From NCBI GenBank assembly GCA_963826535.1, contig CAWGXL010000011.1, positions 384,809 to 448,808 on the forward strand: 64,000 nt of DNA, written 5' to 3'. A program made the position numbers and the translations under genes. The notes below the pieces were generated by a model. The model was not told where the DNA came from. It saw nothing but the letters and a program-made list of their open reading frames with translations, and made no database searches. Below, piece after piece: positions 1,973 to 62,701 of the stretch. The stretch is from an uncultured bacterium (GTDB lineage: Bacteria; Patescibacteriota; Microgenomatia; Levybacterales; UBA12049). The stretch's first letter is position 1. Each line of letters opens with the position of its first letter.

Positions 1973-3937
1973 CTATCCGTGGCCGCCCGCTGTGCCTCCT
2001 CCGGGTGGCGTTCCTCCTCCAGAATGTCCTCCTGCATCCTGTCTATTCAGGCCGCCAAGGGCAGTGACTGCTTTACGGCGAATCTGTCTAAATCTGTTAC
2101 GAACGCCGGGTTTGACATCACCATTATCAAATGTTTCGGGCTTTTTACCCATAAGCTTGTTCCAGCCGGGGCCGGATTGTCGGGTATAGGGATTTTTCCA
2201 GAAAGCTGTATTCCACGCCCGCTGGCCTAGGCCTTTGGCAGGAGCGGATCCGCCAGCTACACTATTGGCAATAGTGGCGGCTGCCATCTTGCCTTGTTGA
2301 CCTGAAGCGTGAACACTTTCTTTTATAATTTCGAGTAAGCCGGGGGTGGCCAAAAGCAAGCCAAATGCAAGGAGGGTGCCGAAGTACTGCATGTTGGGAT
2401 TACCAACGAGGGGTGGCACGAAATTGTTGACTGCCGCGTTATTGTTGAACGCGTTCATTAGTATAGCGGCAGTGGTAAGCAGTAAGGCTGTGGCAGGGAA
2501 TATTGCAAGGTTGGCAAATATCCTTCTGAACCATTTTCCAAAGCCAAGATATGGTTTTCCCTCGCGGTCTCTGGCGGGAAGGAGGCCCATGATGATCCAA
2601 AGCGGTCCACTGATGGCGTAGAGGATTATCATGACATAAGCTTTGAGGAGCACAAACCAGATGCGGAAAAGCATGAAAAGGATGATGCAGGCGACTATGA
2701 GTACGGCGATTATTGTGGTAAGGAAGCTTAATGTAGTACTTATAACATATGAAACGCAACTATTGTCCTTACCGGGCGGATCTTGTTCTCCGCTCCAATA
2801 TGCCGGGGTAAACCATTTGATTATTGGAACATCTTTAAAGTAGGTGCCCCAATTGCATTCTATCTCCCCTGTATTTCCGGTAACAGCTTTTACCAATGTA
2901 TTTCCTACTATTCCTCCCATAGCGATAGATACGTTCCAGCTTGTTCCCCAAACGCCATCATCACATTCGATGCCACCTGTACCACCTGTGACGGGTATGG
3001 GGACATCGACTTCCTGCTCGAGGAGGGAATCTCCGTAAGAGAAGGGCGTATTTACTAAGCCCTGGCTAGCGCGTTTTTGGAGGGTTTCGTTAGTGCAGCC
3101 GAGGGGGTTGGTGATGACGGGGTTAGCTTGAGTGATGAGGTTGATACCCGTATAAGTTGAAAGCCACATGATATCAATCATAAGTCCTACAATGGCATAG
3201 GAGAAGGTGATCAGTAGAATGCTGATAATTACGCGGGGGATTTGATTCTGGATTGTCATGACAGTGCGGGGATCAATTTTTACGCGCAGCATAATGGCCA
3301 GGCCGATAATAACAAAGATGATCACAAAGATAAGGTAGGAAAGATTGCGTACAGCAATCCAGATATTCTGAATGGGCTGCAAGGCTTCGAAGCCGTTGAC
3401 TTGGGCGTGAGCCGGCTCGACGACGCCAAAATTATTGGAAAGATAACGCACATAATCCAGAGAAGATGCCGGTGGTGTATATATTTGGGCAAACATTCCG
3501 GGCGCGATCCCAAGCAGTCCGCCGAGTTGAGGTTGTCCATCGGCGGGAGGCGATAAGCCTAATTTATGTGTTTGGGGGTCTATGCCCAAGCAGCCTTGGG
3601 CGGGGGTGATAGGATCTATGCCGGTTACCAGGCAGAACGTGGCGGAGATGACTTCAATCATAACTGACTGCGCGAAGGTGTGTTGATTACGGGGGACATC
3701 GGGATTGAGTTCAGGCCTATTATATTGGGGGTTATTGGTATTTTGAGCCACTTCAATTGCAGCTAGTGCATTTGAGGATATTGCGTTGGGAGCAATGGCG
3801 AGCAAGAAAATTGAGAGAAAGACGGAAGCAAAACCGAAAATAAATGAATTTCTCCGCGGGGTCGGATCATACGATCCGATTAAAACAGGAAAATGCATAG
3901 TATATTTACTATAGATAATTTTTTTGGGCAAAGTCAA
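1973..3937 (-). CDS. large polytopic membrane protein with N-terminal signal peptide and Gly/Pro-rich C-terminal tail (TrbL/VirB6-like architecture, tentative)
   Basis: 654 aa. Hydrophobic signal-like N-terminus, at least 6 predicted TM helices, C-terminal GGHSGGGTPPGGGTAGGHG tail. The family guess rests on architecture only. Confidence 0.45.
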   Translation of the reverse strand: MTLPKKIIYSKYTMHFPVLIGSYDPTPRRNSFIFGFASVFLSIFLLAIAPNAISSNALAAIEVAQNTNNPQYNRPELNPDVPRNQHTFAQSVMIEVISATFCLVTGIDPITPAQGCLGIDPQTHKLGLSPPADGQPQLGGLLGIAPGMFAQIYTPPASSLDYVRYLSNNFGVVEPAHAQVNGFEALQPIQNIWIAVRNLSYLIFVIIFVIIGLAIMLRVKIDPRTVMTIQNQIPRVIISILLITFSYAIVGLMIDIMWLSTYTGINLITQANPVITNPLGCTNETLQKRASQGLVNTPFSYGDSLLEQEVDVPIPVTGGTGGIECDDGVWGTSWNVSIAMGGIVGNTLVKAVTGNTGEIECNWGTYFKDVPIIKWFTPAYWSGEQDPPGKDNSCVSYVISTTLSFLTTIIAVLIVACIILFMLFRIWFVLLKAYVMIILYAISGPLWIIMGLLPARDREGKPYLGFGKWFRRIFANLAIFPATALLLTTAAILMNAFNNNAAVNNFVPPLVGNPNMQYFGTLLAFGLLLATPGLLEIIKESVHASGQQGKMAAATIANSVAGGSAPAKGLGQRAWNTAFWKNPYTRQSGPGWNKLMGKKPETFDNGDVKPGVRNRFRQIRRKAVTALGGLNRQDAGGHSGGGTPPGGGTAGGHG

Positions 3938-4917: not shown

Positions 4918-6138
4918 ATGAAAAAAGAAGGAATTATTATGGGAGGAGAATCGGGAGATATGAATAGTGGACCAGGGCAACCAGAGAATAATCAACCACC
5001 GGATAAGTCGCAGGTAAAGGAGGTTGTATCAGGAAGTGAGGGGACAGCTGGCTCAGAGAAGGCTCAATCGAAGAGTGATCAGCAAGGGAAAAATAATCCA
5101 GCTAGAGCACGGCCTCCGGAGACTGGCAAGAAAGCGGTGGAAGATGGTGAATTAGGAAGTAAGGAGGCGGGGGGTTCAAAGGAGGCTCCATGGGAGAGAG
5201 TTATTCGGGAGCGTCATTCCCGTAGAACACTCCCTACGGAGACTGATAAGGGTGAAGCCGGAGCTAAAATGGATCCTGCAGAAAAAATGTTAATAAAATT
5301 CGAGAATATATTGGGGGAGACTGAGTTGGGGAAAAATATTAGATTTGCGAACGAACTGCTATTTCATCCGGATTCTTTTCATCCTGATGATCTGGAGGCT
5401 TTATTAGGGTTTGAGACAGAAGTTACGGGTGAGGACGGAAAACCTATAAAAATGAATATGGTCGATATTGGCCACGGATTAATTGATGAATTTAGAAATG
5501 GAAAATTATTTGGCAGGAGAAGTTTTCAACTATTAAAGGCAGCGGGAAAATTGCGGAAACAGGTTAATGCTTCAGGGAAGAAAGGATCAGACATGGACGT
5601 TTTGACAGGAGAGAAAGCAGACGATAGGAGCGAGAAGGTGGCGCAAAATGCGCTTGACGCATTGGAGCGAGGGGAAGAAATAGATAAAGTTGTAGAAGCA
5701 ATAGACGCAGATCAACTTAGAGAGGAAATGGGATTAAGTGAACAACAAGTAAAGGATCTAGCTTCGCAGGTCTTCGGTGATACGATGCCAGCACCGGGAG
5801 CTGGCGATAGAGGCGGTCAGGATGTTTTACCTACACAAGGCTCAACAGATACCAGTACCACTTCAACTGGCGGTGGAGCAGAAGGAGGGGGAACGGTACC
5901 GCCAGTTGCTCCGCTTAGTAGAGGAGAGGGAGTGCCTAGAATTTCACCAGAAGAACTGGATAGATTAAAGAAGAGTAGTTCGGATTGGTTAGATAAAGTG
6001 GATTTTGGTGCGTGGGGTTATAACGCCGGTATGTTAGCGCTTATACTTATGCTTATGTATTTAGGAGCTATGGGTAGCATGGCAAGATTTCTGGAAAGAA
6101 ACTCAGAGAGAACGAGAGCCCAGGTTCAGAATGTTTAA
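4918..6138 (+). CDS. hypothetical low-complexity (E/K/G-rich) protein with C-terminal transmembrane anchor
   Basis: Start moved to the ATG at 4918, which has an upstream GAGGAAG Shine-Dalgarno. The C-terminus LALILMLMYLGAMG is a single hydrophobic segment. Confidence 0.45.
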   Translation: MKKEGIIMGGESGDMNSGPGQPENNQPPDKSQVKEVVSGSEGTAGSEKAQSKSDQQGKNNPARARPPETGKKAVEDGELGSKEAGGSKEAPWERVIRERHSRRTLPTETDKGEAGAKMDPAEKMLIKFENILGETELGKNIRFANELLFHPDSFHPDDLEALLGFETEVTGEDGKPIKMNMVDIGHGLIDEFRNGKLFGRRSFQLLKAAGKLRKQVNASGKKGSDMDVLTGEKADDRSEKVAQNALDALERGEEIDKVVEAIDADQLREEMGLSEQQVKDLASQVFGDTMPAPGAGDRGGQDVLPTQGSTDTSTTSTGGGAEGGGTVPPVAPLSRGEGVPRISPEELDRLKKSSSDWLDKVDFGAWGYNAGMLALILMLMYLGAMGSMARFLERNSERTRAQVQNV

Positions 6139-6144
6139 TTTTTG

Positions 6145-6218
6145 TGCTCTTGAGGGGGGTCGAACCCCTACTCGCCAGATCCGGAATCTGGTGCTTTATC
6201 CAATTAAGCTACAAGAGC
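6145..6218 (-). tRNA. tRNA-Arg (anticodon CCG)
   Basis: Minus strand: GCTCTTG acceptor, anticodon stem CCAGA with loop TTCCGGA, T-arm GGGGTTCGACCCC, 3' CAAGAGC-A. Confidence 0.8.
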
Positions 6219-6304
6219 AAGAGGTAAGGTGCGATCTATTGTAGCAAAAAAAATAAGTTTTTTCTTCCTTGACGCGATTAGTATAAATCGGTTAAATTAG
6301 AAGT

Positions 6305-6877
6305 ATGCTCGAAGAATTACAACAAAAAGAAATAAAAATAGAAGAAAAAGTAAAGGAATCTCCAGATACATATCCCGATGTCAATACATTGATCTCATGG
6401 CATGCTCCTGGCAGGCCGTTTAAAACGCACTCAAAAGAATATTTCGTAAATATTTTTCTTATTACAGTTGCTATTGAGGTAATTGTATTTCTATTTCACA
6501 TGTATTTGCTTATGCTTGTTATTTTATCCCTAGCATTTCTTGCTTTTGCTTTGGCAATTGTGCCTCCACATATGTTTTATTACAAAATTACCAGCGAAGG
6601 AATTAGAATTGAAGACAGTTTTTTTATTTGGGATGAGCTTTATGATTTCTACTTTACCAAACAAAACGGTATTGAGTTAGTAAAAATAGGTACAAAGTCT
6701 TATTTCCCTGGTGAACTTACGCTTATGCTGGGTGATATTACGCCTCAACAACTAAAAATGGCTCTAATATCTTATCTTCCATTTCGTGAGTATGTCAAGC
6801 CTACCTTTACTCAGAAAGCCGGGGACTGGCTGGAAAAGAATTTCCCCCTCGAAAAAACTTCACACGAACTTCATTGA
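6305..6877 (+). CDS. hypothetical membrane protein (2 TM)
   Basis: 190-aa ORF with two hydrophobic helices. A TTGACG / TATAAA promoter-like pair lies at about 6269-6292. Confidence 0.5.
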   Translation: MLEELQQKEIKIEEKVKESPDTYPDVNTLISWHAPGRPFKTHSKEYFVNIFLITVAIEVIVFLFHMYLLMLVILSLAFLAFALAIVPPHMFYYKITSEGIRIEDSFFIWDELYDFYFTKQNGIELVKIGTKSYFPGELTLMLGDITPQQLKMALISYLPFREYVKPTFTQKAGDWLEKNFPLEKTSHELH

Positions 6878-27804: not shown

Positions 27805-28464
27805 TTATTCTTTAATTTCTTCGAAAGTGGCGAGGTTGTAGAATTGGGGGTCGGAGTGGAGGATGAGGTCTTTGGGAGATTTTAGTCTGTCAATATTTAT
27901 AATGCCATTTAGGTGATCGATTTCGTGTTGAAAGACTCGATTGAGCATTTTGTTTGCAGGCGTGTTGTCTTTTGTAGACCAAAATTGCAATTCTCCCATT
28001 TCATCGAAATATTCAAATTCAATCCAGGAAGGACGGATGACTGGTGCGATAATAGGAGTTGTACTCATGTACATCTCGGGGTATTTTAATAACGATCGCG
28101 ACCGTTTGGTAATTTTGGGATTGATGATGGTTAAAAGTTGGTCGGGGGCATAGGTAATACTGAGGGCTTCGGGAATACCAATCTGGATGGCGGCGATGCC
28201 ACGTCCCATACCAGTAATTTTTCGGTATTTGAGCAGGCAATTTTTTAGGTAGTTAATTTTTGCTTTGAAAACTTTTGAAGTTATGTCTTTTCTAAGCACT
28301 ATTTTTGAGGGTTGGCGGAGAATCGGTGATTCGTCGAGTTGGTAAATGAATTGGGAGGTTTGGGTGAGTTGGGTGAAGTCTTGTTTTTTAAATTTTTTGT
28401 GCGGGGGTGGGGTGGGTTGCCAGTTTTGCATAGATTGGAGTATAGCATAGTTGACTGCAGGCAT
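27805..28464 (-). CDS. def: peptide deformylase
   Basis: GIAAIQIGIP, the EGCLS-like region and QHEIDHLNG motifs. The N-terminal extension suggests the true start may lie about 10 codons downstream. Confidence 0.8.
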   Translation of the reverse strand: MPAVNYAILQSMQNWQPTPPPHKKFKKQDFTQLTQTSQFIYQLDESPILRQPSKIVLRKDITSKVFKAKINYLKNCLLKYRKITGMGRGIAAIQIGIPEALSITYAPDQLLTIINPKITKRSRSLLKYPEMYMSTTPIIAPVIRPSWIEFEYFDEMGELQFWSTKDNTPANKMLNRVFQHEIDHLNGIINIDRLKSPKDLILHSDPQFYNLATFEEIKE

Positions 28465-28498: not shown

Positions 28499-28696
28499 AT
28501 GAAAGCGATAGATTTGAGTAAAGTTCTTAAGCCATATACTGAAGGATGGGTTGCTATAAATACAAAGAACAAAAAAATTGTAGCTTATGCAAAAACTTTT
28601 GAATCTATCTCTAATAAAGTTATAGATAAAAAGGGTATAATTTTGGTGCCTGCATCGAAGAATTATTTCGGTTTTGTTACTTCTATAAATGCGTAA
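28499..28696 (+). CDS. small protein (DUF5678-like GxWVAI motif), first gene of a cassette
   Basis: 65 aa; EGWVAINTKNKKIVAYAKTFESI...GIILVPAS. Its stop overlaps the start of the downstream gene by 8 nt. Confidence 0.5.
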   Translation: MKAIDLSKVLKPYTEGWVAINTKNKKIVAYAKTFESISNKVIDKKGIILVPASKNYFGFVTSINA

Positions 28697-29105
28697 ATAC
28701 CAATACTATCTTCCTGCTCCTAAAGTTTATAAGCCTTGGATTCCGGTAAAAATTGGATATAAGAAAACTAATAAGATAACATATGCTCAGGTTACAGCTC
28801 TGATTGATTCCGGAGCAGATGTTTGTTTTTGTTCGAGAGATATTGCAGATTTTCTTGGGGTTCAAAAAAAACAAAAAGAGAAAAAGATTTTTATAACTGC
28901 AAATAATTCTCCGCTCCCCACATTTCGCGAAACATTGACCTTATTTGTAGGCGGGAGAAATTACGAATGTTCGTTTTATATTTCCGATATGTTACCGAAA
29001 GAAACTCCAATTATACTTGGTCAGTTGGGGTTTTTTGATAAGCATAAAGTTACATTTGATTTGGAGAATGAAGAGATACAAATGAGTTATTACTTGGATA
29101 ATTAG
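28689..29105 (+). CDS. retropepsin-like (clan AA) aspartic protease
   Basis: Active-site motif ALIDSGADVCF (D-S-G-A) and ILGQLGFF; 138 aa, single domain. Confidence 0.6.
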   Translation: MRKYQYYLPAPKVYKPWIPVKIGYKKTNKITYAQVTALIDSGADVCFCSRDIADFLGVQKKQKEKKIFITANNSPLPTFRETLTLFVGGRNYECSFYISDMLPKETPIILGQLGFFDKHKVTFDLENEEIQMSYYLDN

Positions 29106-29155
29106 AATTTAATGGTCAGAGTATTTAAATGATGGTATAATGAGTGTGATTTTGC

Positions 29156-29228
29156 GGGCCAGTAGTTCAGCGGCTAGAACGGGCGTCTTATACACTCCAT
29201 GTCGGAGGTTCGAGTCCTCCCTGGCCCA
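29156..29228 (+). tRNA. tRNA-Ile, anticodon reads UAU
   Basis: GGGCCAG-TA-GTTCAGCGGCTAGAAC-G-GGCGT-CTTATAC-ACTCC-ATGTC-GGAGG-TTCGAGT-CCTCC-CTGGCCC-A; one C:U mismatch in the anticodon stem. Confidence 0.55.
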
Positions 29229-29382
29229 CAAACTGTAATTTGTTATGATAAATAAAGACTTCTTTGGGTTTGTAGCCTGCTTTGCTGGTGTAAAATACCA
29301 TAATGAAACCAGAACTAGACAGAACATTAGGGTTGAGGCTATATGAAGATCGGGATAAAATTAGTAGAATGAAGACAATGAT

Positions 29383-57692: not shown

Positions 57693-59507
57693 ATGAAATT
57701 TAGTGAATTGGCGATTTATTTTGAAAAATTAGAAGCTACATCTTCAAGATTAGCACTTATTGATATACTTGCGGATCTTTTTAAGCAGGTATCTAATGAT
57801 GAGTTTGACAGAGTTATTTATTTGACGCAGGGGAGGGTGGCGCCGTTCTACGCGCCTGTGGAAATCGGTATGGCGGATAAGATGGTGGCGCAAAGCATCG
57901 GTGAAGCATTTGGTCTTACTAAAGACGAGGTGCTCACAGTTTTTTCAAAAAAAGGCGACTTGGGGTTGGTTGCGTTTGAGCTTTCAAAGAGCAAGCGAAA
58001 ACGCGGGAAAAAAGAAGAATTGTCGGTCGTAACTGTTTTTGATGAGTTATTGAAGATTGCGCATACCGGAGGAGTCGGTAGTGTTGAAAAGAAAATTACC
58101 GCATTGAAAGTATTGCTTGAACATATGGATGCTGTTTCGGCGAAACATTTGGTCAGAATCCCTCTTGGTAATACAAGACTCGGAATAGGAGACCCAACAA
58201 TATTAGATGGGTTGGCTTTGGCTATTTTAGGAGACCGCAGCAACAGAAAACTTCTTGAAAAAGCGTACAATGAGACTTCAGATTTAGGCTTGATTGGTAA
58301 GACATTGGTGGAGGGTGGGTTGAAAAAAGTTCAAAAGCTGACTGTAAATGTTGGCAGGCCGATCAGGTCAGAACTATGTGAACGTTTGCCTAATCCAGAA
58401 AAAGTTTTTAGTAAGATGAGTCCTTCGACAGGCTCAGGATCTCCCTACGGTCGAGGTGTGCATACGACTTTTAAATATGATGGGTTTCGGGTGCAGATTC
58501 ATAAAAATGGTAACAAAGTGGAGATGTTTTCCCGCAATCTAGAAGATATGACGCATATGTTTCCGGAACTTATTGAGGGGACGCTTAAGCAAGTGAAAGC
58601 TAAGACTGTGATTTTGGATACTGAGGCATTGGCATATCAGCCTGATTCGGAAGAATTTTTGCCGTTTCAAGAAACTACCAAGCGGCGTAGAAAATATAAT
58701 ATTGAAGAGATGGCCCAGAGTTTGCCATTGAAAGCATTTGTTTTTGATATTTTGTATTTAGATGGAAAATCTCTGATTGATACTCCGCTAACGGAGCGGA
58801 TGAAGATTCTAAAAAAAGTTATTCCCAATAAGGACATTTTGATTCCATCAACCGGAGAAATTCTGACAGATCCCAAAGATCTGCAATTTATGCTGGACGA
58901 TGCGATTTCAAAAGGACTTGAGGGGGTTGTGGTTAAAAAACCTGACTCATTGTATGAAGCGGGCGGACGGAATTTTAATTGGGTGAAGCTGAAAAGACAT
59001 TCTTCCGGAGAACTGCAGGATACTATTGACTGCGTGATTTTGGGATATATATTCGGCCGCGGCAAAAGAACGGCATTTGGAGCCGGAGCATTATTGGTGG
59101 GATTGTATGATAAAGCTGCTGATCAATTTGTCAGTGTCTCCCGAATAGGAACAGGGTTAAATGATGATGAGTGGAGAAGCATCAAAGAAAAAACAAAAGG
59201 CCTCGAACTTGACCATAAGCCTGCACGTGTAAATTCATTGATTACGCCGAGTGTTTGGGTAAAGCCTGAGATTGTGATTGAGGTTTTGGCGGATGAGATA
59301 ACGAGGAGTCCTTTGCATACCGCGGGTATGCAAACTAAGAACTTAGGACCTAGAACTAAGAACAAAGTGGAGGATAAATTACAAGAGGCGGGGTATGCTT
59401 TGAGGTTTCCGCGATTAATTAGCTTTCGTGATAAGGATAAAAAGGCTGAGGATGCTACTACGGTGGATGAGTTAATTGAAATGTATAAGATGCAAGGCAA
59501 GAAATAG
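57693..59507 (+). CDS. ATP-dependent DNA ligase (archaeal/eukaryotic Lig-type) with an in-frame insertion
   Basis: Motif I KYDGFR (KxDG), motif IV EGVVVK, motif V WVKLK. Insertion at 59312-59366 (palindrome tttgcataccgcgggtatgcaaa plus taagaac repeats). Confidence 0.8.
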   Translation: MKFSELAIYFEKLEATSSRLALIDILADLFKQVSNDEFDRVIYLTQGRVAPFYAPVEIGMADKMVAQSIGEAFGLTKDEVLTVFSKKGDLGLVAFELSKSKRKRGKKEELSVVTVFDELLKIAHTGGVGSVEKKITALKVLLEHMDAVSAKHLVRIPLGNTRLGIGDPTILDGLALAILGDRSNRKLLEKAYNETSDLGLIGKTLVEGGLKKVQKLTVNVGRPIRSELCERLPNPEKVFSKMSPSTGSGSPYGRGVHTTFKYDGFRVQIHKNGNKVEMFSRNLEDMTHMFPELIEGTLKQVKAKTVILDTEALAYQPDSEEFLPFQETTKRRRKYNIEEMAQSLPLKAFVFDILYLDGKSLIDTPLTERMKILKKVIPNKDILIPSTGEILTDPKDLQFMLDDAISKGLEGVVVKKPDSLYEAGGRNFNWVKLKRHSSGELQDTIDCVILGYIFGRGKRTAFGAGALLVGLYDKAADQFVSVSRIGTGLNDDEWRSIKEKTKGLELDHKPARVNSLITPSVWVKPEIVIEVLADEITRSPLHTAGMQTKNLGPRTKNKVEDKLQEAGYALRFPRLISFRDKDKKAEDATTVDELIEMYKMQGKK

Positions 59508-59558
59508 TATACTTCTACATTTGTAAATTTATCATACTGATATTATACTCGTACTATT

Positions 59559-60329
59559 ATGGAAGTTAAAACATCAGGTGAATCAAATTTCCGTATAATT
59601 AAAATTGCCAGTAAGGAACTGATTCAGGATTTAACGCAGAGACAAGAGGAGTTAGATGAATGGGTTAAAAAGACTAAGGAGGTAGTCCCAACAGATAGAA
59701 ATTTTAATTTCGAAATTAAAAAAGGAGTTGAAAATAATGTAGGTCTTAGTTTAAGAAGAAATGATGGAGCAACGATTAACGTCAATTCTTTTATACCTGA
59801 AGGAGTAAGATTTCAAATAAGAGATAAATATTTATATAATGATGCAGAGAAGGTAGTTGGTTTTCCTGAAGATCAGCTGCAATATAGGGGGTCTCTTTTG
59901 TCGCTTTTTCATGAAATTGGACATTCTAAAACGTTTGTTATGCCAAGTTATTCATTTATAGAGAAAGTGAGGGCTGAGGTTGTAAATAAACTAAATCTTT
60001 TTAGAATTATTAATCACCAAGGCAATTTAGAAGTGCCTCAACTAGATCATCTCCTACATATAATTAATATAAGTCCAGAAGTACTCTATCCTGAAGACCT
60101 GATGGAAAAGAGACTTTCTGTACATGAACAAAATGAAAGGGAAGCATGGGCATCAGGGCTACATTCCCTACGGGATCTTAATAGTAAAGGTTACAATGTT
60201 TTTGCAGGTTTTGAAAGCGTGAAGGATGTACAAGCTTTTATTGCTGCTAATCTTACATCATACAATATACTGGAGCATGCGATGACAGGTTACGAGTCTA
60301 ATCGTTTTTCAAAAAGACCCTATAAATAA
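59559..60329 (+). CDS. hypothetical protein with HExxH (HEIGH) motif
   Basis: LFHEIGHSKTF is the only recognisable feature; possible metallopeptidase. Confidence 0.4.
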   Translation: MEVKTSGESNFRIIKIASKELIQDLTQRQEELDEWVKKTKEVVPTDRNFNFEIKKGVENNVGLSLRRNDGATINVNSFIPEGVRFQIRDKYLYNDAEKVVGFPEDQLQYRGSLLSLFHEIGHSKTFVMPSYSFIEKVRAEVVNKLNLFRIINHQGNLEVPQLDHLLHIINISPEVLYPEDLMEKRLSVHEQNEREAWASGLHSLRDLNSKGYNVFAGFESVKDVQAFIAANLTSYNILEHAMTGYESNRFSKRPYK

Positions 60330-60370
60330 ATGCCCTTTTTTATTTTAATGAGATATTGATGGGTGCATTA

Positions 60371-60475
60371 TATGCAGTACGTAGCGGATTTGCATCTTCA
60401 TTCAAAATATTCGCGGGCGGTGTCGCAGAGTATGACCTTATCTGTAATGGCGCAATATTCCTTGAGAAGAAGAGT
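60371..60475 (+). pseudogene. truncated duplicate of the 5' end (~35 codons) of the EndoQ-like gene
   Basis: MQYVADLHLHSKYSRAVSQSMTLSVMAQY then stop. About 80% nt identity to 61133-61225. Confidence 0.5.
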
Positions 60476-60509
60476 TTGATTTCGCTATTTTTTATGTTAT
60501 TATAAATTA

Positions 60510-60710
60510 ATGAAAACAGTTGACTGGAGCAATATTTATAAAAATCATAAAGGCAAATGGGTAGCGTTGGCAGATGATGAGAGGACGGTTCTGGCTGTTG
60601 CGACAGACGTTAAACAGGTAATTAAAAAAGCGCTCGATGCGGGGCATAAAAATCCAATCTTAACCAAGATGCCTCAGAAATTGCTTACATATGTCGGCTC
60701 CCGTATATGA
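60510..60710 (+). CDS. small protein (DUF5678-like GKWVAL motif), first gene of cassette copy 2
   Basis: 66 aa; HKGKWVALADDERTVLAVATDVKQVIKKALDAGHKNPIL. Overlaps the downstream gene by 4 nt. Confidence 0.5.
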   Translation: MKTVDWSNIYKNHKGKWVALADDERTVLAVATDVKQVIKKALDAGHKNPILTKMPQKLLTYVGSRI

Positions 60711-61126
60711 AGTTTTCCTATAAAGATTATGGCGAAGGCATCATCCGTCCTGTTATCCCAATTACGATAGTATCTAAAAACCACTTTGTAATCTATGAAG
60801 TTCTGGTTGATTCGGGTGCTGATTCAAACATTTTGCCAGCAGAGCTTGCGGAAGTCTTGGGAATAAATCTTAGTAAAGGCGATAAGGGAGAAGTAGCAGG
60901 AATTACCGGTGAAAGTCGTGATATTTATTTCCATGATTTGAATATCCGGGTAGGAGGTGATTTATATAAAAAAGTACGGATTGGATTCTTAAAAGAAATG
61001 GGACAGTACAGTTATGGCGTTGTAGGTCAAAAGGGCTTTTTTGATATTTTTGTAGTTAAATTTGACTTAGTCAAGGAAGAAATAGACTTAAAACCGCGAG
61101 AAAGTTTTAGTTCCTATAAAAATTGA
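60707..61126 (+). CDS. retropepsin-like (clan AA) aspartic protease, paralog of 28689..29105
   Basis: VLVDSGADSNIL (D-S-G-A) and FLKEMGQ...GQKGFF; 139 aa. Confidence 0.6.
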   Translation: MKFSYKDYGEGIIRPVIPITIVSKNHFVIYEVLVDSGADSNILPAELAEVLGINLSKGDKGEVAGITGESRDIYFHDLNIRVGGDLYKKVRIGFLKEMGQYSYGVVGQKGFFDIFVVKFDLVKEEIDLKPRESFSSYKN

Positions 61127-61132
61127 GCGCTT

Positions 61133-62701
61133 ATGCATTACGTGGCGGATTTGCATTTACATAGTAAATATTCACGGGCGGTGTCGCCGAGTATGACTCT
61201 TCCGGTAATGGCGCAATTCGCGAGACAAAAGGGACTGGATATTTTGACTGTTTCGGATTGGACACATCCGATTTGGTTTAGGGAAATACAGGGACAGTTA
61301 GAGGAAGCAGGGGAAGGAGTATACAAAATCAAAGATCCCCACAAGGGGACTACCTTCAAAGAAGGGTCGCAAAGTTCAAAGATCAAAACTACAACTCACG
61401 CCGACGTTAAAGCTATGGCGGGCGGGCAAAGCTCAAAATCACAAAAAGATATTTTATTTTTGCTTTCTACAGAAATCTCAAGCATCTATAAGCAGGGGGA
61501 TAAATTACGACGGATACATAATCTTATTTTTGTACCAAATTTGGAAACTGCGGAGAAAGTTAGTAAGGAACTACTACGGCGGGGGTGTAATTTGTCGGCT
61601 GATGGGCGGCCGATTATTGGTTTGTCTGCAAAAAATTTATTGGAGCTGATTTTAGCTATTGATGAAAGGTCGTTGCTTATTCCATGTCATATTTGGACGC
61701 CGCATTTTGGGGTTTATGGATCAAAAAGTGGGTTTGATTCACTTGAGGAGGCATTTGGTGATTTGGCAAAATATGTATATGGCGTTGAGACAGGTATTTC
61801 TTCTGATCCTGAAATGAACTGGCGAGTTGAGGAGCTTAGTAACCGGTCAATACTTTCATTTTCCGATGCACATTCTCCTGCTAATATGGCACGCGAGGCC
61901 ACGGCCTTTGAACTTTCGGAGCCGAGCTATGAAAATATAAGACAGGCATTTATGCGAACATCTAAACTTGTCATTGCGAGCGACCCGCCAGCTGGCGGAG
62001 AGCGTGGCAATCCCGTTGAGAAAGGGATTGCACCCCAAGAGTACTTGCCTCTTCGAGGTGGCGCTTCGTCGTCCTTAAATAAGGGGACTCCTCGCAATGA
62101 CAATCGTATAGCTTATACAATTGAATTTTATCCTGAAGAGGGTAAGTATCATTATTCAGGTCACCGAACATGCAAAATTTCCTTTTCGCCTCAAGAAATT
62201 AAAGAGCATGGAAAGATTTGTCCAGTCTGCAAACGGGAATTTACAGAAGGGGTAGCGCTTCGCATTGAGCAACTAGCCGGAGCGGCTAATGCAGACGGAT
62301 ATGAAGAGAAAATAAGCGAAAGCGGTGTTAAGTGGTATACGGATGGGTCAAAGAGGCATCCTCCATATGTTAAGCTTGTGCGACTTGAACAGATTATAGG
62401 AAGCGGGATGGGTCTTGGAGCAAAAAGCATTAAGGTGAAAGCCGAGTATGACAAATTAATGCGTGAATTTGGGTCGGAGCTTACTATTCTTCTTAAGTCA
62501 ACATTATCTGAGATAGAAAAAATAACTAATGCAAAAATTGCTGAGGGTGTGGGAAGAGTGAGAAAGGGAAAGCTTAAAATTGACCCGGGATATGACGGGG
62601 AATACGGGGTTGTAAAAATTTGGGATTCTGCAGAGCAGAATTTAAAGGGAAAAGAGGCTGGGGAAAAAATTTCTGAAGGGCAGTTGGGGCTGGACATCTA
62701 A
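61133..62701 (+). CDS. EndoQ-like PHP-domain nuclease (TIGR00375 family) with in-frame insertions
   Basis: N-terminal YVADLHLHSKYSRAVS (PHP His cluster as in archaeal EndoQ) and a C-terminal Zn finger C...CPVC. Insertions at 61324-61448 and 61985-62100. Confidence 0.6.
   Translation: MHYVADLHLHSKYSRAVSPSMTLPVMAQFARQKGLDILTVSDWTHPIWFREIQGQLEEAGEGVYKIKDPHKGTTFKEGSQSSKIKTTTHADVKAMAGGQSSKSQKDILFLLSTEISSIYKQGDKLRRIHNLIFVPNLETAEKVSKELLRRGCNLSADGRPIIGLSAKNLLELILAIDERSLLIPCHIWTPHFGVYGSKSGFDSLEEAFGDLAKYVYGVETGISSDPEMNWRVEELSNRSILSFSDAHSPANMAREATAFELSEPSYENIRQAFMRTSKLVIASDPPAGGERGNPVEKGIAPQEYLPLRGGASSSLNKGTPRNDNRIAYTIEFYPEEGKYHYSGHRTCKISFSPQEIKEHGKICPVCKREFTEGVALRIEQLAGAANADGYEEKISESGVKWYTDGSKRHPPYVKLVRLEQIIGSGMGLGAKSIKVKAEYDKLMREFGSELTILLKSTLSEIEKITNAKIAEGVGRVRKGKLKIDPGYDGEYGVVKIWDSAEQNLKGKEAGEKISEGQLGLDI
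61324..61448. repeat. in-CDS composite insertion (heptamers plus ccccacaaggggactac core) in the EndoQ-like gene
   Basis: Encodes KIKDPHKGTTFKEGSQSSKIKTTTHADVKAMAGGQSSKSQKD. Confidence 0.5.

Follow-up and report, generated by a model that had tools for sequence, protein, structure and literature searches.

A gene pair of a DUF5678 small protein and a retropepsin-like aspartic protease recurring at variable sites in Patescibacteria

In the window analysed here, by which the whole stretch of 64,000 nucleotides is meant, a short gene overlapping the gene of a single-domain aspartic protease occurs twice, each time in a different setting. The question raised by the locus is whether these two genes form a module of their own that moves between genomic sites, and what the two proteins might then do to each other.

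Pair 1 is situated on the forward strand between peptide deformylase (def; 27805..28464, reverse strand) and tRNA-Ile(tat) (29156..29229). It consists of a DUF5678-type protein of 65 aa (small protein 1; 28499..28696, pI 9.9) with the C-terminal tail ...NYFGFVTSINA, and of a single-domain retropepsin-like aspartic protease of 138 aa (protease 1; 28689..29105) with the active site LIDSGADV and a second motif ILGQLGFFD. The two ORFs overlap by 8 nt, ATGCGTAA. When the flanks of pair 1 were searched for repeats and for duplication of a tRNA fragment, neither was found. Pair 2, also on the forward strand, includes a DUF5678 protein of 66 aa (small protein 2; 60510..60710, pI 9.9, tail ...LLTYVGSRI) and a second single-domain retropepsin-like aspartic protease, of 139 aa (protease 2; 60707..61126), in which the active site reads LVDSGADS and the second motif VVGQKGFFD; here the overlap is 4 nt, ATGA. 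The ORF calls agreed with the preliminary description of this DNA in coordinates, lengths and both overlaps, and its placing of pair 1 between def and a tRNA and of pair 2 in a duplicated EndoQ 5' region was likewise correct.

The surroundings of pair 2 record how it is placed. The pair is bracketed by a direct repeat of 86 nt, the arms of which are 84% identical and differ mainly at synonymous positions (dN 0.12, dS 0.52). The right arm (61132..61217, forward strand), beginning 6 nt past the stop codon of protease 2, is the true 5' end of EndoQ, an intact gene of 522 aa (61133..62701, forward strand) the identity of which was confirmed against PDB entries 5zb8 and 7k30. The left arm (60371..60456, forward strand) is an orphan copy of this 5' end, encoding MQYVADLHLHSKYSRAVSQSMTLSVMAQ and then reaching a stop. 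In relatives, a DNA ligase gene is present directly upstream of EndoQ without the pair between them, and the pair was absent from this position in 80 of the 80 related EndoQ loci. Pair 2 lies within 1.6 kb of DNA inserted in this lineage only, which splits the conserved DNA ligase–EndoQ pair and leaves behind the orphan EndoQ 5' fragment.

The two proteases of the window are 27% identical (E=2e-12). Similarity between the two small proteins was undetectable by BLASTP, and in profile alignment they are clearly homologous. Against the Pfam family DUF5678 (PF18929, gathering score 23.2), small protein 2 scored 26.0 bits, above the cut-off, and small protein 1 scored 20.0 bits (E=6e-4), slightly under it; small protein 1 could nevertheless be aligned over its full length with small protein 2 and with 11 further upstream ORFs, and it reached 100.8 bits against the family HMM. 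DUF5678 was matched by 13 of the 13 partner proteins tested (best E=3.5e-11), and the precomputed Pfam labels of called upstream genes agree with this. Both proteases exceeded the gathering score of Asp_protease_2 (PF13650; 24.3), protease 1 with 24.6 bits and protease 2 with 27.5 bits, and the Pfam scan of the proteases detected no domain beyond the aspartic protease domain. Homologues numbered 97 for protease 1, every one of them from CPR, and 410 for protease 2. The DUF5678-like nature claimed earlier for the small proteins was hereby confirmed, for copy 2 by the Pfam cut-off and for copy 1 by the family alignment, as was the claim of clan-AA retropepsin-like proteases by the Asp_protease_2 scores together with the fold model described below. 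No function is assigned to DUF5678 in Pfam and none was found in the searched literature; the retropepsin partner and a conserved C-terminal tail are new for the family.

Whether the pairing holds beyond the two loci had been set beforehand as a test in the preliminary description. In a sample of 100 fetched related loci with 102 protease hits, a DUF5678 ORF was present directly upstream on the same strand at 99 hits, and the remaining three were contig-end or fragment cases, so that co-occurrence is close to 100% and far above chance. Also in the reverse check, a distant small protein (L184) was found to have a protease partner. Altogether, the pair is present at at least 404 loci among species-representative genomes, and an exhaustive profile search with the small protein gave 326 clusters. 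Among 84 unique pairs, the spacing between the genes ranged from -26 to +15 nt, the 4-nt overlap ATGA being present in 59.

The small ORFs, which had earlier been in doubt as translated genes, are, as judged from the sequences, real, since they are intact in the 84 unique pairs and the comparison of small protein 1 with its counterpart in L019 (a relative with a pair of 83% identity) gave a dN/dS of approximately 0.18. For the protease the value was approximately 0.07, and both genes are under purifying selection. The pairwise identities of small protein and protease are correlated (r=0.84, a value reached by 0 of 300 permutations), with means of 54% and 52%, respectively, and the pairs are divided into two subfamilies in which tails and proteases are matched. 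Because of these correlated identities and matched subfamilies, the partners seem to be specific to each other and to be inherited as a unit.

The AF2 model of protease 2 (pLDDT 90.7) had 81 matches at E<=1e-3 in a Foldseek search against PDB, the top ones being APRc, the HIV and FIV proteases and DDI2. In an alignment of 40 protease sequences, D35, S36, G37, D39 and G107-Q108-x-G110-F111-F112 were invariant. The protease is predicted to be a single-lobe retropepsin with an intact D-S-G-A-D site; the geometry of the catalytic aspartate had been singled out beforehand for checking, and the model has the retropepsin fold with the D-S-G-A-D motif invariant. The active site of retropepsins requires a homodimer, which is predicted to be needed also here because both the fold and the D-[ST]-G-A-D signature are as in retropepsins. 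The best structural match was APRc (RC1339) of Rickettsia conorii (PDB 5c9b, 5c9d and 5c9f; Foldseek E=5e-5 to 6e-5, TM up to 0.75 when normalised by target length), which shares the single retropepsin lobe and the D-[ST]-G-A motif. However, identity to it is only 18–19%, and the proteases of the pair are about 130 aa long and always paired, whereas APRc is larger, membrane-anchored and, to our knowledge, without a DUF5678 partner.

The retroviral proteases (HIV-1/2, FIV, RSV) and the Ddi1/DDI2 domains likewise share the fold and the D-[ST]-G-A-D signature. The likeness of fold and DSGAD motif to retroviral and Ty3 proteases, and the fact that the ORFs overlap out of frame, would fit a retroelement-like gag-pro remnant in which the small ORF and the protease are expressed as one frameshifted polyprotein. 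Nevertheless, the protease frame is offset by +1 in pair 1 and by -1 in pair 2, both proteases start at an ATG of their own within the overlap, and the ATGA overlaps of the majority of the unique pairs (59/84) are typical of translational coupling. Furthermore, no fused protein was present among the 326 small-protein clusters, and no reverse transcriptase, integrase or repeats were found near any examined locus. Unlike the retroviral proteases, those studied here are encoded by stand-alone prokaryotic genes with no polyprotein and no retroelement genes nearby, and unlike in the Ddi1-like arrangement, the partner is not a ubiquitin-like domain. The polyprotein was rejected on the differing frame offsets, the own start codons and the lack of fusions, and the probability left to a gag-pro origin is vanishingly small.

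The small protein carries an aromatic-hydrophobic-Gly motif, Y-[VF]-G, near its C-terminus in 82 of the 84 unique pairs; beyond it, the chain extends by 0–7 residues that are variable and unconserved. On both sides of the bond they cleave, retropepsins favour residues that are hydrophobic or aromatic. The small protein could be made as a precursor and serve as a dedicated substrate of the protease, which would cut at Y-[VF]-G, remove the variable extension and release the mature protein, much as ubiquitin-like proteins or small effectors are matured. The near-universal motif with its variable extension and the cleavage preference of retropepsins both fit this explanation, and strict pairing and co-divergence would be expected of an enzyme and its substrate equally well. 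However, the Gly of the motif is the last residue in seven of the 84, each with an intact protease (e.g. the Gemmataceae pair L049, ...PYVG), so trimming is not obligatory. The AF2 model of small protein 2 has a confident fold (pLDDT 93.2) for which no relative was found among solved structures, and this fold is not the beta-grasp of ubiquitin-like proteins. In addition, neither conjugation enzymes nor other recurrent partners were found nearby, and maturation without a downstream user would leave the multi-copy, site-hopping distribution of the pair unexplained. That the small protein is a dedicated substrate seems unlikely.

Most of the loci with the pair belong to Patescibacteria (CPR), and some are on contigs of Gemmataceae and Bacteroidota. 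The Gemmataceae contigs have a GC content of 59–69%, and their copies are approximately 50% identical to those of CPR. Close homologues, with 71–83% identity, occupy unrelated genomic sites, and the 135 flanking ORFs were distributed among 120 Pfam families, each seen at most three times. The distribution is patchy and multi-copy, with two copies in the window of 64 kb and, at another locus (L016), two copies no more than 3.3 kb apart. The behaviour of a mobile or selfish module, which had been proposed from the two copies of the window, is supported, because homologues differ in their sites, no flanking gene family recurs more than three times, copy 2 is part of an insertion and the pair has spread across phyla to high-GC planctomycete contigs. 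One pair (P0309) is present as a decayed fusion remnant, as is expected of dispensable selfish modules. The search of plasmids for the module gave 0 matches, and it is nearly absent from viral contigs, in which one locus had an alignment to the protease and none to the small protein.

The immediate neighbours of the pair are mostly housekeeping genes, including EF-Tu, ribosomal proteins, tRNA synthetases and cell-wall genes, and neither a conserved third gene nor defence-island enrichment was found among them. At single loci, the pair is flanked by PIN and BrnT/BrnA modules (L004) or by an MmeI-like restriction-modification gene and Phd/YafQ (L007). These neighbours would agree with an accessory housekeeping pair not involved in conflict, in which the protease, helped by a partner resembling an adaptor or chaperone, subjects particular cellular proteins to regulated proteolysis in bacteria of reduced genome, the pair just happening to be prone to rearrangement. 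The pair is also very common in Patescibacteria, and DDI-type proteases, which act in proteostasis, are among the closest solved structural relatives of the protease. Such a pair would, however, not readily account for the patchy and multi-copy occurrence, with homologues of 74–83% identity at different loci, nor for the insertion of pair 2 that is missing from all 80 related EndoQ loci (80/80), the spread into Planctomycetota and Bacteroidota or the existence of a decayed remnant. We regard a housekeeping role as improbable.

The preliminary description did not recognise the pair as a described system, and this holds for the searchable literature, in which nothing relevant was found on DUF5678, on Asp_protease_2, on retropepsins in antitoxin, defence or phage contexts or on toxin-antitoxin systems of CPR. 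A caveat concerns the protease, since PDC-M08 and PDC-M52 have B components that are relatives of it. These are candidate two-gene phage-defence cassettes in PADLOC, detected because they were embedded in BREX, DISARM or type I restriction-modification loci ('guilt-by-embedding'; Payne et al., bioRxiv 10.1101/2024.01.29.577857). PDC-M52B was matched by 27 of 40 members of the protease family (best E=5.8e-12) and PDC-M08B by 22 of 40 (best E=6e-8), the proteases of the window matching weakly (E=4.3e-5 and 6.9e-5, respectively). The small proteins of the window did not match the A components at E<=1, and among 73 relatives of the small protein a single one matched PDC-M08A (E=1.1e-3). By their sequences, PDC-M08 and PDC-M52 thus appear to be the nearest catalogued relatives through the protease only: they are alike in having two genes and a B component of about 120–140 aa, and unlike in that their A components are not matched by the small partner and that the copies of the window are located outside defence systems.

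The explanation we favour, to which we give slightly less than an even chance, is that the two genes form an autonomous module that moves horizontally and is toxin-antitoxin-like or abortive-infection-like, the small protein restraining its cognate protease. The upstream gene encodes a basic DUF5678 protein of 60–70 aa and the downstream, translationally coupled gene a retropepsin-type protease of about 130 aa, the active site of which would be formed by a homodimer. We infer that the small protein binds the cognate protease and holds it inactive, the direction of control thus being from the small protein to the protease. The likely contact would be the conserved C-terminal aromatic-hydrophobic-Gly tail, which could occupy the cleft of the protease as a pseudo-substrate or block the dimer interface as a strand. 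If the small protein were lost or depleted, through loss of the module, shut-off of translation or phage infection, the protease would be freed and could cleave cellular or invader proteins, which would make it toxic and might give the pair a role in defence.

This restrained-protease module resembles type II toxin-antitoxin systems in several respects. Co-directional, adjacent small genes are present, the small upstream gene overlaps the larger downstream one by 4–8 nt, the module is autonomous and multi-copy, variable in context and horizontally spread, and some loci adjoin bona fide toxin-antitoxin modules. It differs from them in that the putative toxin is of a class, the aspartic proteases, that is not known among toxins, and in that the putative antitoxin is basic and not acidic and is without an RHH, HTH, AbrB or Phd-type fold; also the comparison of the small protein 2 model with solved structures gave no RHH, HTH, AbrB/SpoVT or Phd/YefM antitoxin fold. 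Neither protein matched known toxin or antitoxin families in Pfam, NCBIfam or PADLOC, and no protease toxin of such a kind is described in the searched literature.

Some observations speak against a toxin-antitoxin-like reading. Antitoxins usually diverge faster than toxins, and here the small protein is conserved as much as the protease. The neighbours are mainly housekeeping and not defence genes, the module is near-absent from viral contigs and plasmids, and both proteins lack matches among the known families of toxins and antitoxins.

The even conservation of the two proteins, together with the strongly basic character of the small protein (median pI 9.8), would also suit the reversed polarity: toxicity or effector function would then lie with the small protein, for instance through binding of nucleic acids, and the protease would be an antitoxin that works as an enzyme, degrading or processing its partner. 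Among other toxin-antitoxin systems there are some in which the toxin gene comes first and some in which the antitoxin is an enzyme, and the genomic behaviour of the pair fits this explanation as well as it does restraint of the protease. The small protein, however, has no similarity to toxin families, and solitary DUF5678-like genes without a protease exist (L182, L183), which would be tolerated more easily as antitoxin-like genes than as toxins. The PADLOC candidates, moreover, are linked to the pair through the protease and not through the small protein, and we consider the reversed polarity very unlikely.

If the small protein does restrain the protease, the pair may represent an unrecognised class of toxin-antitoxin or abortive-infection systems, with a free-standing retropepsin as the effector and a new-fold DUF5678 protein as its keeper, acting by the C-terminal tail, abundant in CPR and exchanged with Planctomycetota and Bacteroidota. 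This wider proposal is rather doubtful at present. Were it true, clan AA would have its first protease-toxin module, and the small protein would be a naturally occurring inhibitor of a retropepsin; the aspartic protease would join the known toxin and effector types of prokaryotic conflict systems, and DUF5678 and hundreds of CPR genes labelled 'retroviral-like aspartic protease' would gain a role. A genetically encoded natural partner of a retropepsin, possibly an inhibitor, would also bear on the control of HIV-type proteases.

The genomes of Patescibacteria are very small and have few accessory cassettes that are abundant, of which the module is one; knowing how it works is relevant to the ways in which these episymbionts deal with phages and gene loss. 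Even without a function, strict pairing provides a rule for annotation: an ORF of 60–70 aa that contains G-x-W-V-A, carries a Y-[VF]-G tail and is located upstream of such a protease is to be treated as a real gene. The upstream small ORF is sometimes missed by gene callers, as in L001.

Both gene pairs of the window lay exactly where the preliminary description had placed them. In pair 1, the gene of a 65-aa small protein (28499-28696) overlaps by 8 nt (ATGCGTAA) that of a 138-aa protease (28689-29105), and in pair 2 the gene of a 66-aa small protein (60510-60710) overlaps by 4 nt (ATGA) that of a 139-aa protease (60707-61126). The two proteases share 27% identity (E=2e-12), and both exceeded the Pfam gathering score of Asp_protease_2 (24.6 and 27.5 bits, respectively, vs 24.3). 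Against the DUF5678 cut-off of 23.2 bits, small protein 2 reached 26.0 bits and small protein 1 fell just under it with 20.0 bits. BLASTP detected no similarity between the two small proteins; they could be aligned in full length with one another and with 11 partner ORFs found elsewhere, and each of these 13 sequences matched DUF5678 (best E=3.5e-11). The earlier identification of the small proteins as DUF5678-like was thus upheld, small protein 2 by its Pfam score and small protein 1 by its alignment with DUF5678 members.

The two genomic contexts were also as described earlier. Pair 1 is flanked by peptide deformylase (minus strand) and, directly downstream, by tRNA-Ile with anticodon TAT (UAU; 29156-29229). 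Between pair 1 and the tRNA there is a promoter-like site (29113-29141) with TGGTCA, a 17-nt spacer and TATAAT with TG upstream. Neither a partial tRNA duplication nor a flanking repeat, as of an insertion at tRNA-Ile, was found there. Pair 2 is bordered on one side by an orphan copy of the EndoQ 5' end (86 nt, 60371-60456) and on the other by the start of EndoQ proper (61132-61217); a comparison with PDB 5zb8 and 7k30 identified this 522-aa gene as EndoQ (E about 1e-41).

The two genes form a conserved module, and their pairing is no coincidence. Protease 1 had 97 homologues, every one from Microgenomates-type CPR bacteria, and protease 2 had 410, spread across Patescibacteria; a 61-66-aa ORF lay directly upstream of the protease in every neighbourhood inspected. 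At least 404 loci were confirmed in a scan with one genome per species. When HMMs built from our own alignments were run over 100 loci, 99 of the 102 protease matches were directly preceded by a DUF5678 ORF in the same orientation, the exceptions being two contig-edge cases and one fragment, and the only two 'orphan' small ORFs were both at locus ends. In 84 unique pairs the distance from the small gene's end to the protease start ranged between -26 and +15 nt, and 59 pairs had the 4-nt overlap. With clustering at 50% identity, an exhaustive profile search gave 326 clusters of small proteins; of the 150 best, almost all were 60-70 aa long and none was fused to a protease domain. On one Levybacteria contig the DUF5678 gene (L001, 3811-4008) was uncalled in the deposited annotation, with the ORF intact and overlapping the protease by 8 nt; small partner genes are probably under-annotated generally.

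Purifying selection acts on both genes: between pair 1 and its relative in L019, dN was 0.10 and dS 0.57 for the small protein, and 0.10 and 1.47 for the protease. The pairwise identities of small protein and protease were correlated (r=0.84, reached by none of 300 label permutations), two matched subfamilies accounting for part of the correlation. The longer small-protein entries that were inspected had over-extended starts, save one of 81 aa (P0309), in which the N-terminal half of a DUF5678 protein is joined to the C-terminal part of the protease (GILGQKGFFE...KFEY). It looks like a decayed deletion remnant of a pair, which indicates that the modules decay.

The protease alignment is invariant at D35-S36-G37-(A)-D39 and G107-Q108-x-G110-F111-F112, corresponding to the retroviral D-[ST]-G-A-D signature and the second hydrophobic-Gly motif. 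The AF2 model (pLDDT 90.7) matched Rickettsia APRc, HIV-1/2 and FIV proteases and human DDI2 in Foldseek, and the sequence profile weakly matched DDI1, Ty3 and RSV proteases. Together with the Pfam scores, the model bears out the retropepsin-like type proposed for both proteases. Retropepsins with a single lobe of this kind must homodimerise for an active site to form. The reading of the pair as a gag-pro remnant was contradicted by the evidence.

A confident model of the small protein (pLDDT 93.2) begins with a short helix and two strands, followed by a second helix, a third strand and a tail of 13 residues. Its model had no significant relative among solved structures (Foldseek best E=2.4), and its sequence profile found only de novo designed proteins there; by the lack of a significant structural relative, the predicted fold is not that of RHH, HTH, AbrB or Phd-type antitoxin domains, nor is it ubiquitin-like. 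The small proteins are basic (median pI 9.8), and 82 of the 84 have a C-terminal aromatic/hydrophobic-hydrophobic-Gly motif (Y-V-G or Y-F-G), after which come 0-7 variable residues. In the favoured reading this tail would act as a pseudo-substrate or as a strand blocking the dimer interface; in a rival reading the small protein would be a dedicated substrate, trimmed by the protease at the Y-[VF]-G motif.

The module-like, mobile behaviour previously suggested was borne out by close relatives at unrelated sites. The 83%-identical relative of protease 1 has TyrRS on one side and a hypothetical gene near RecG on the other, and a 71% relative is found between QRPTase and hydrolase/NadA genes; the 74% relative of protease 2 lies upstream of SmpB, and a 70% relative follows a LytR_C gene. 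The 135 immediately flanking ORFs, mostly housekeeping genes, represented 120 different Pfam families, each seen at most three times, and thus point to no third partner and no fixed context. Two pairs are carried by the 64-kb window, and one Patescibacteria contig (L016) has two within 3.3 kb (2797-3405 and 6114-6405) with PEP-utilising enzyme genes between them.

Contigs labelled Gemmataceae, Frigoriglobus or Gemmatales (59-69% GC) carry the pair with about 50% protein identity to the CPR copies, and the pair is also present on Bacteroidota-labelled contigs; this distribution indicates transfer between phyla. 'Binchicken' TPA assemblies labelled 'uncultured Gammaproteobacteria' (L022, L025, L031, L082 and others; 36-44% GC) have pairs with 50-65% identity to those of CPR bacteria, and their organism labels look unreliable. 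The sole match in the viral collection was a complete pair (64 aa and 146 aa, 4-nt overlap) at the extreme end of a predicted viral contig of 22.9 kb (L101 3735-4366; IMG/VR UViG_3300029268_002474), and it could belong to host DNA flanking a prophage instead of being phage cargo. Nothing was found when viral contigs were searched with the small-protein alignment, and the plasmids searched gave no match to the pair.

Copy 2 records an insertion into the ligase-EndoQ adjacency. In 80 EndoQ loci from metagenomes, an ATP-dependent DNA ligase gene was commonly directly upstream of EndoQ, with a gap of less than 100 nt in six (L123, L126, L128, L130, L149, L157), and in none did a pair lie between them. 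In the window the two genes are 1.6 kb apart (region 57693-62701), separated by a 256-aa ORF, the orphan EndoQ 5' fragment and pair 2. The ORF (59559-60329) has a HEIGH (HExxH-like) motif; it matched no Pfam family, and tblastn found no counterpart of it in the 80 related EndoQ loci. The EndoQ 5' copies are 84% identical; 14 of 86 nt differ, yet only three of 28 codons at the protein level (dN 0.12, dS 0.52), and the differences include a TCA/AGT switch for Ser and CTT/TTA switches for Leu. These mostly synonymous differences suggest two alleles that diverged as functional genes, and thereby recombination with foreign DNA rather than duplication in place followed by decay.

In the literature searched, no paper connected a toxin-antitoxin or defence pair with either DUF5678 or a retropepsin-like protease, in agreement with the earlier view that this is not a described system. 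Among catalogued systems, the PADLOC candidates PDC-M52 and PDC-M08 come closest; they are two-gene cassettes discovered inside BREX, DISARM or type I restriction-modification loci (10.1101/2024.01.29.577857). PDC-M52B was matched by 27 of 40 family proteases (best E=5.8e-12) and PDC-M08B by 22 (best E=6e-8), the window proteins matching the B components weakly (E=4e-5 to 7e-5). The A components matched neither window small protein, which by this test places the pair outside these candidates; one of 73 small-protein relatives matched PDC-M08A (E=1.1e-3), and a distant relationship to PDC-M08 is possible. The pair was classed as a two-gene cassette of the toxin-antitoxin-like or defence-candidate type, unusual in its effector and with a partner of unrecognised fold. 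The DUF5678-protease family is large, cleanly defined and uncharacterised, with a plausible, unusual mechanism and partial overlap with existing computational candidates.

In the genome the pair behaves as toxin-antitoxin modules and small defence cassettes do. Several traits favour a conflict module: the two genes are strictly paired with overlapping stop and start codons, fall into cognate subfamilies, occur in several copies per genome and at variable sites, have spread across phyla, leave decayed remnants and occasionally reside in toxin-antitoxin or restriction-modification clusters. One such cluster (L004 4510-5939) holds a PIN toxin gene, a neighbouring 90-aa ORF and a BrnT/BrnA (BrnT/CopG-type) module, and another (L007 850-5046) an MmeI-like type IIG restriction-modification gene with a Phd/YafQ module. 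The favoured reading, a conflict module in which the small protein binds its cognate protease and holds it in check, is given somewhat less than an even chance; release of the protease would then lead to damaging or protective proteolysis. In rival readings the polarity would be reversed, the small protein being the toxin, or the two would form an adaptor-protease pair outside conflict.

Another, unrelated overlapping small-gene pair was seen at L004 8095-8399. A more distant DUF5678-like gene of 63 aa (P0359; L182 2501-2692, also L183) stands alone; the DNA downstream is AT-rich and free of ORFs for about 1 kb, there is no protease, and its neighbours have no Pfam match. Its tail (...NNHYRYF) is without the Y-V-G motif, and it is possibly a solitary or mobile-element-borne relative.
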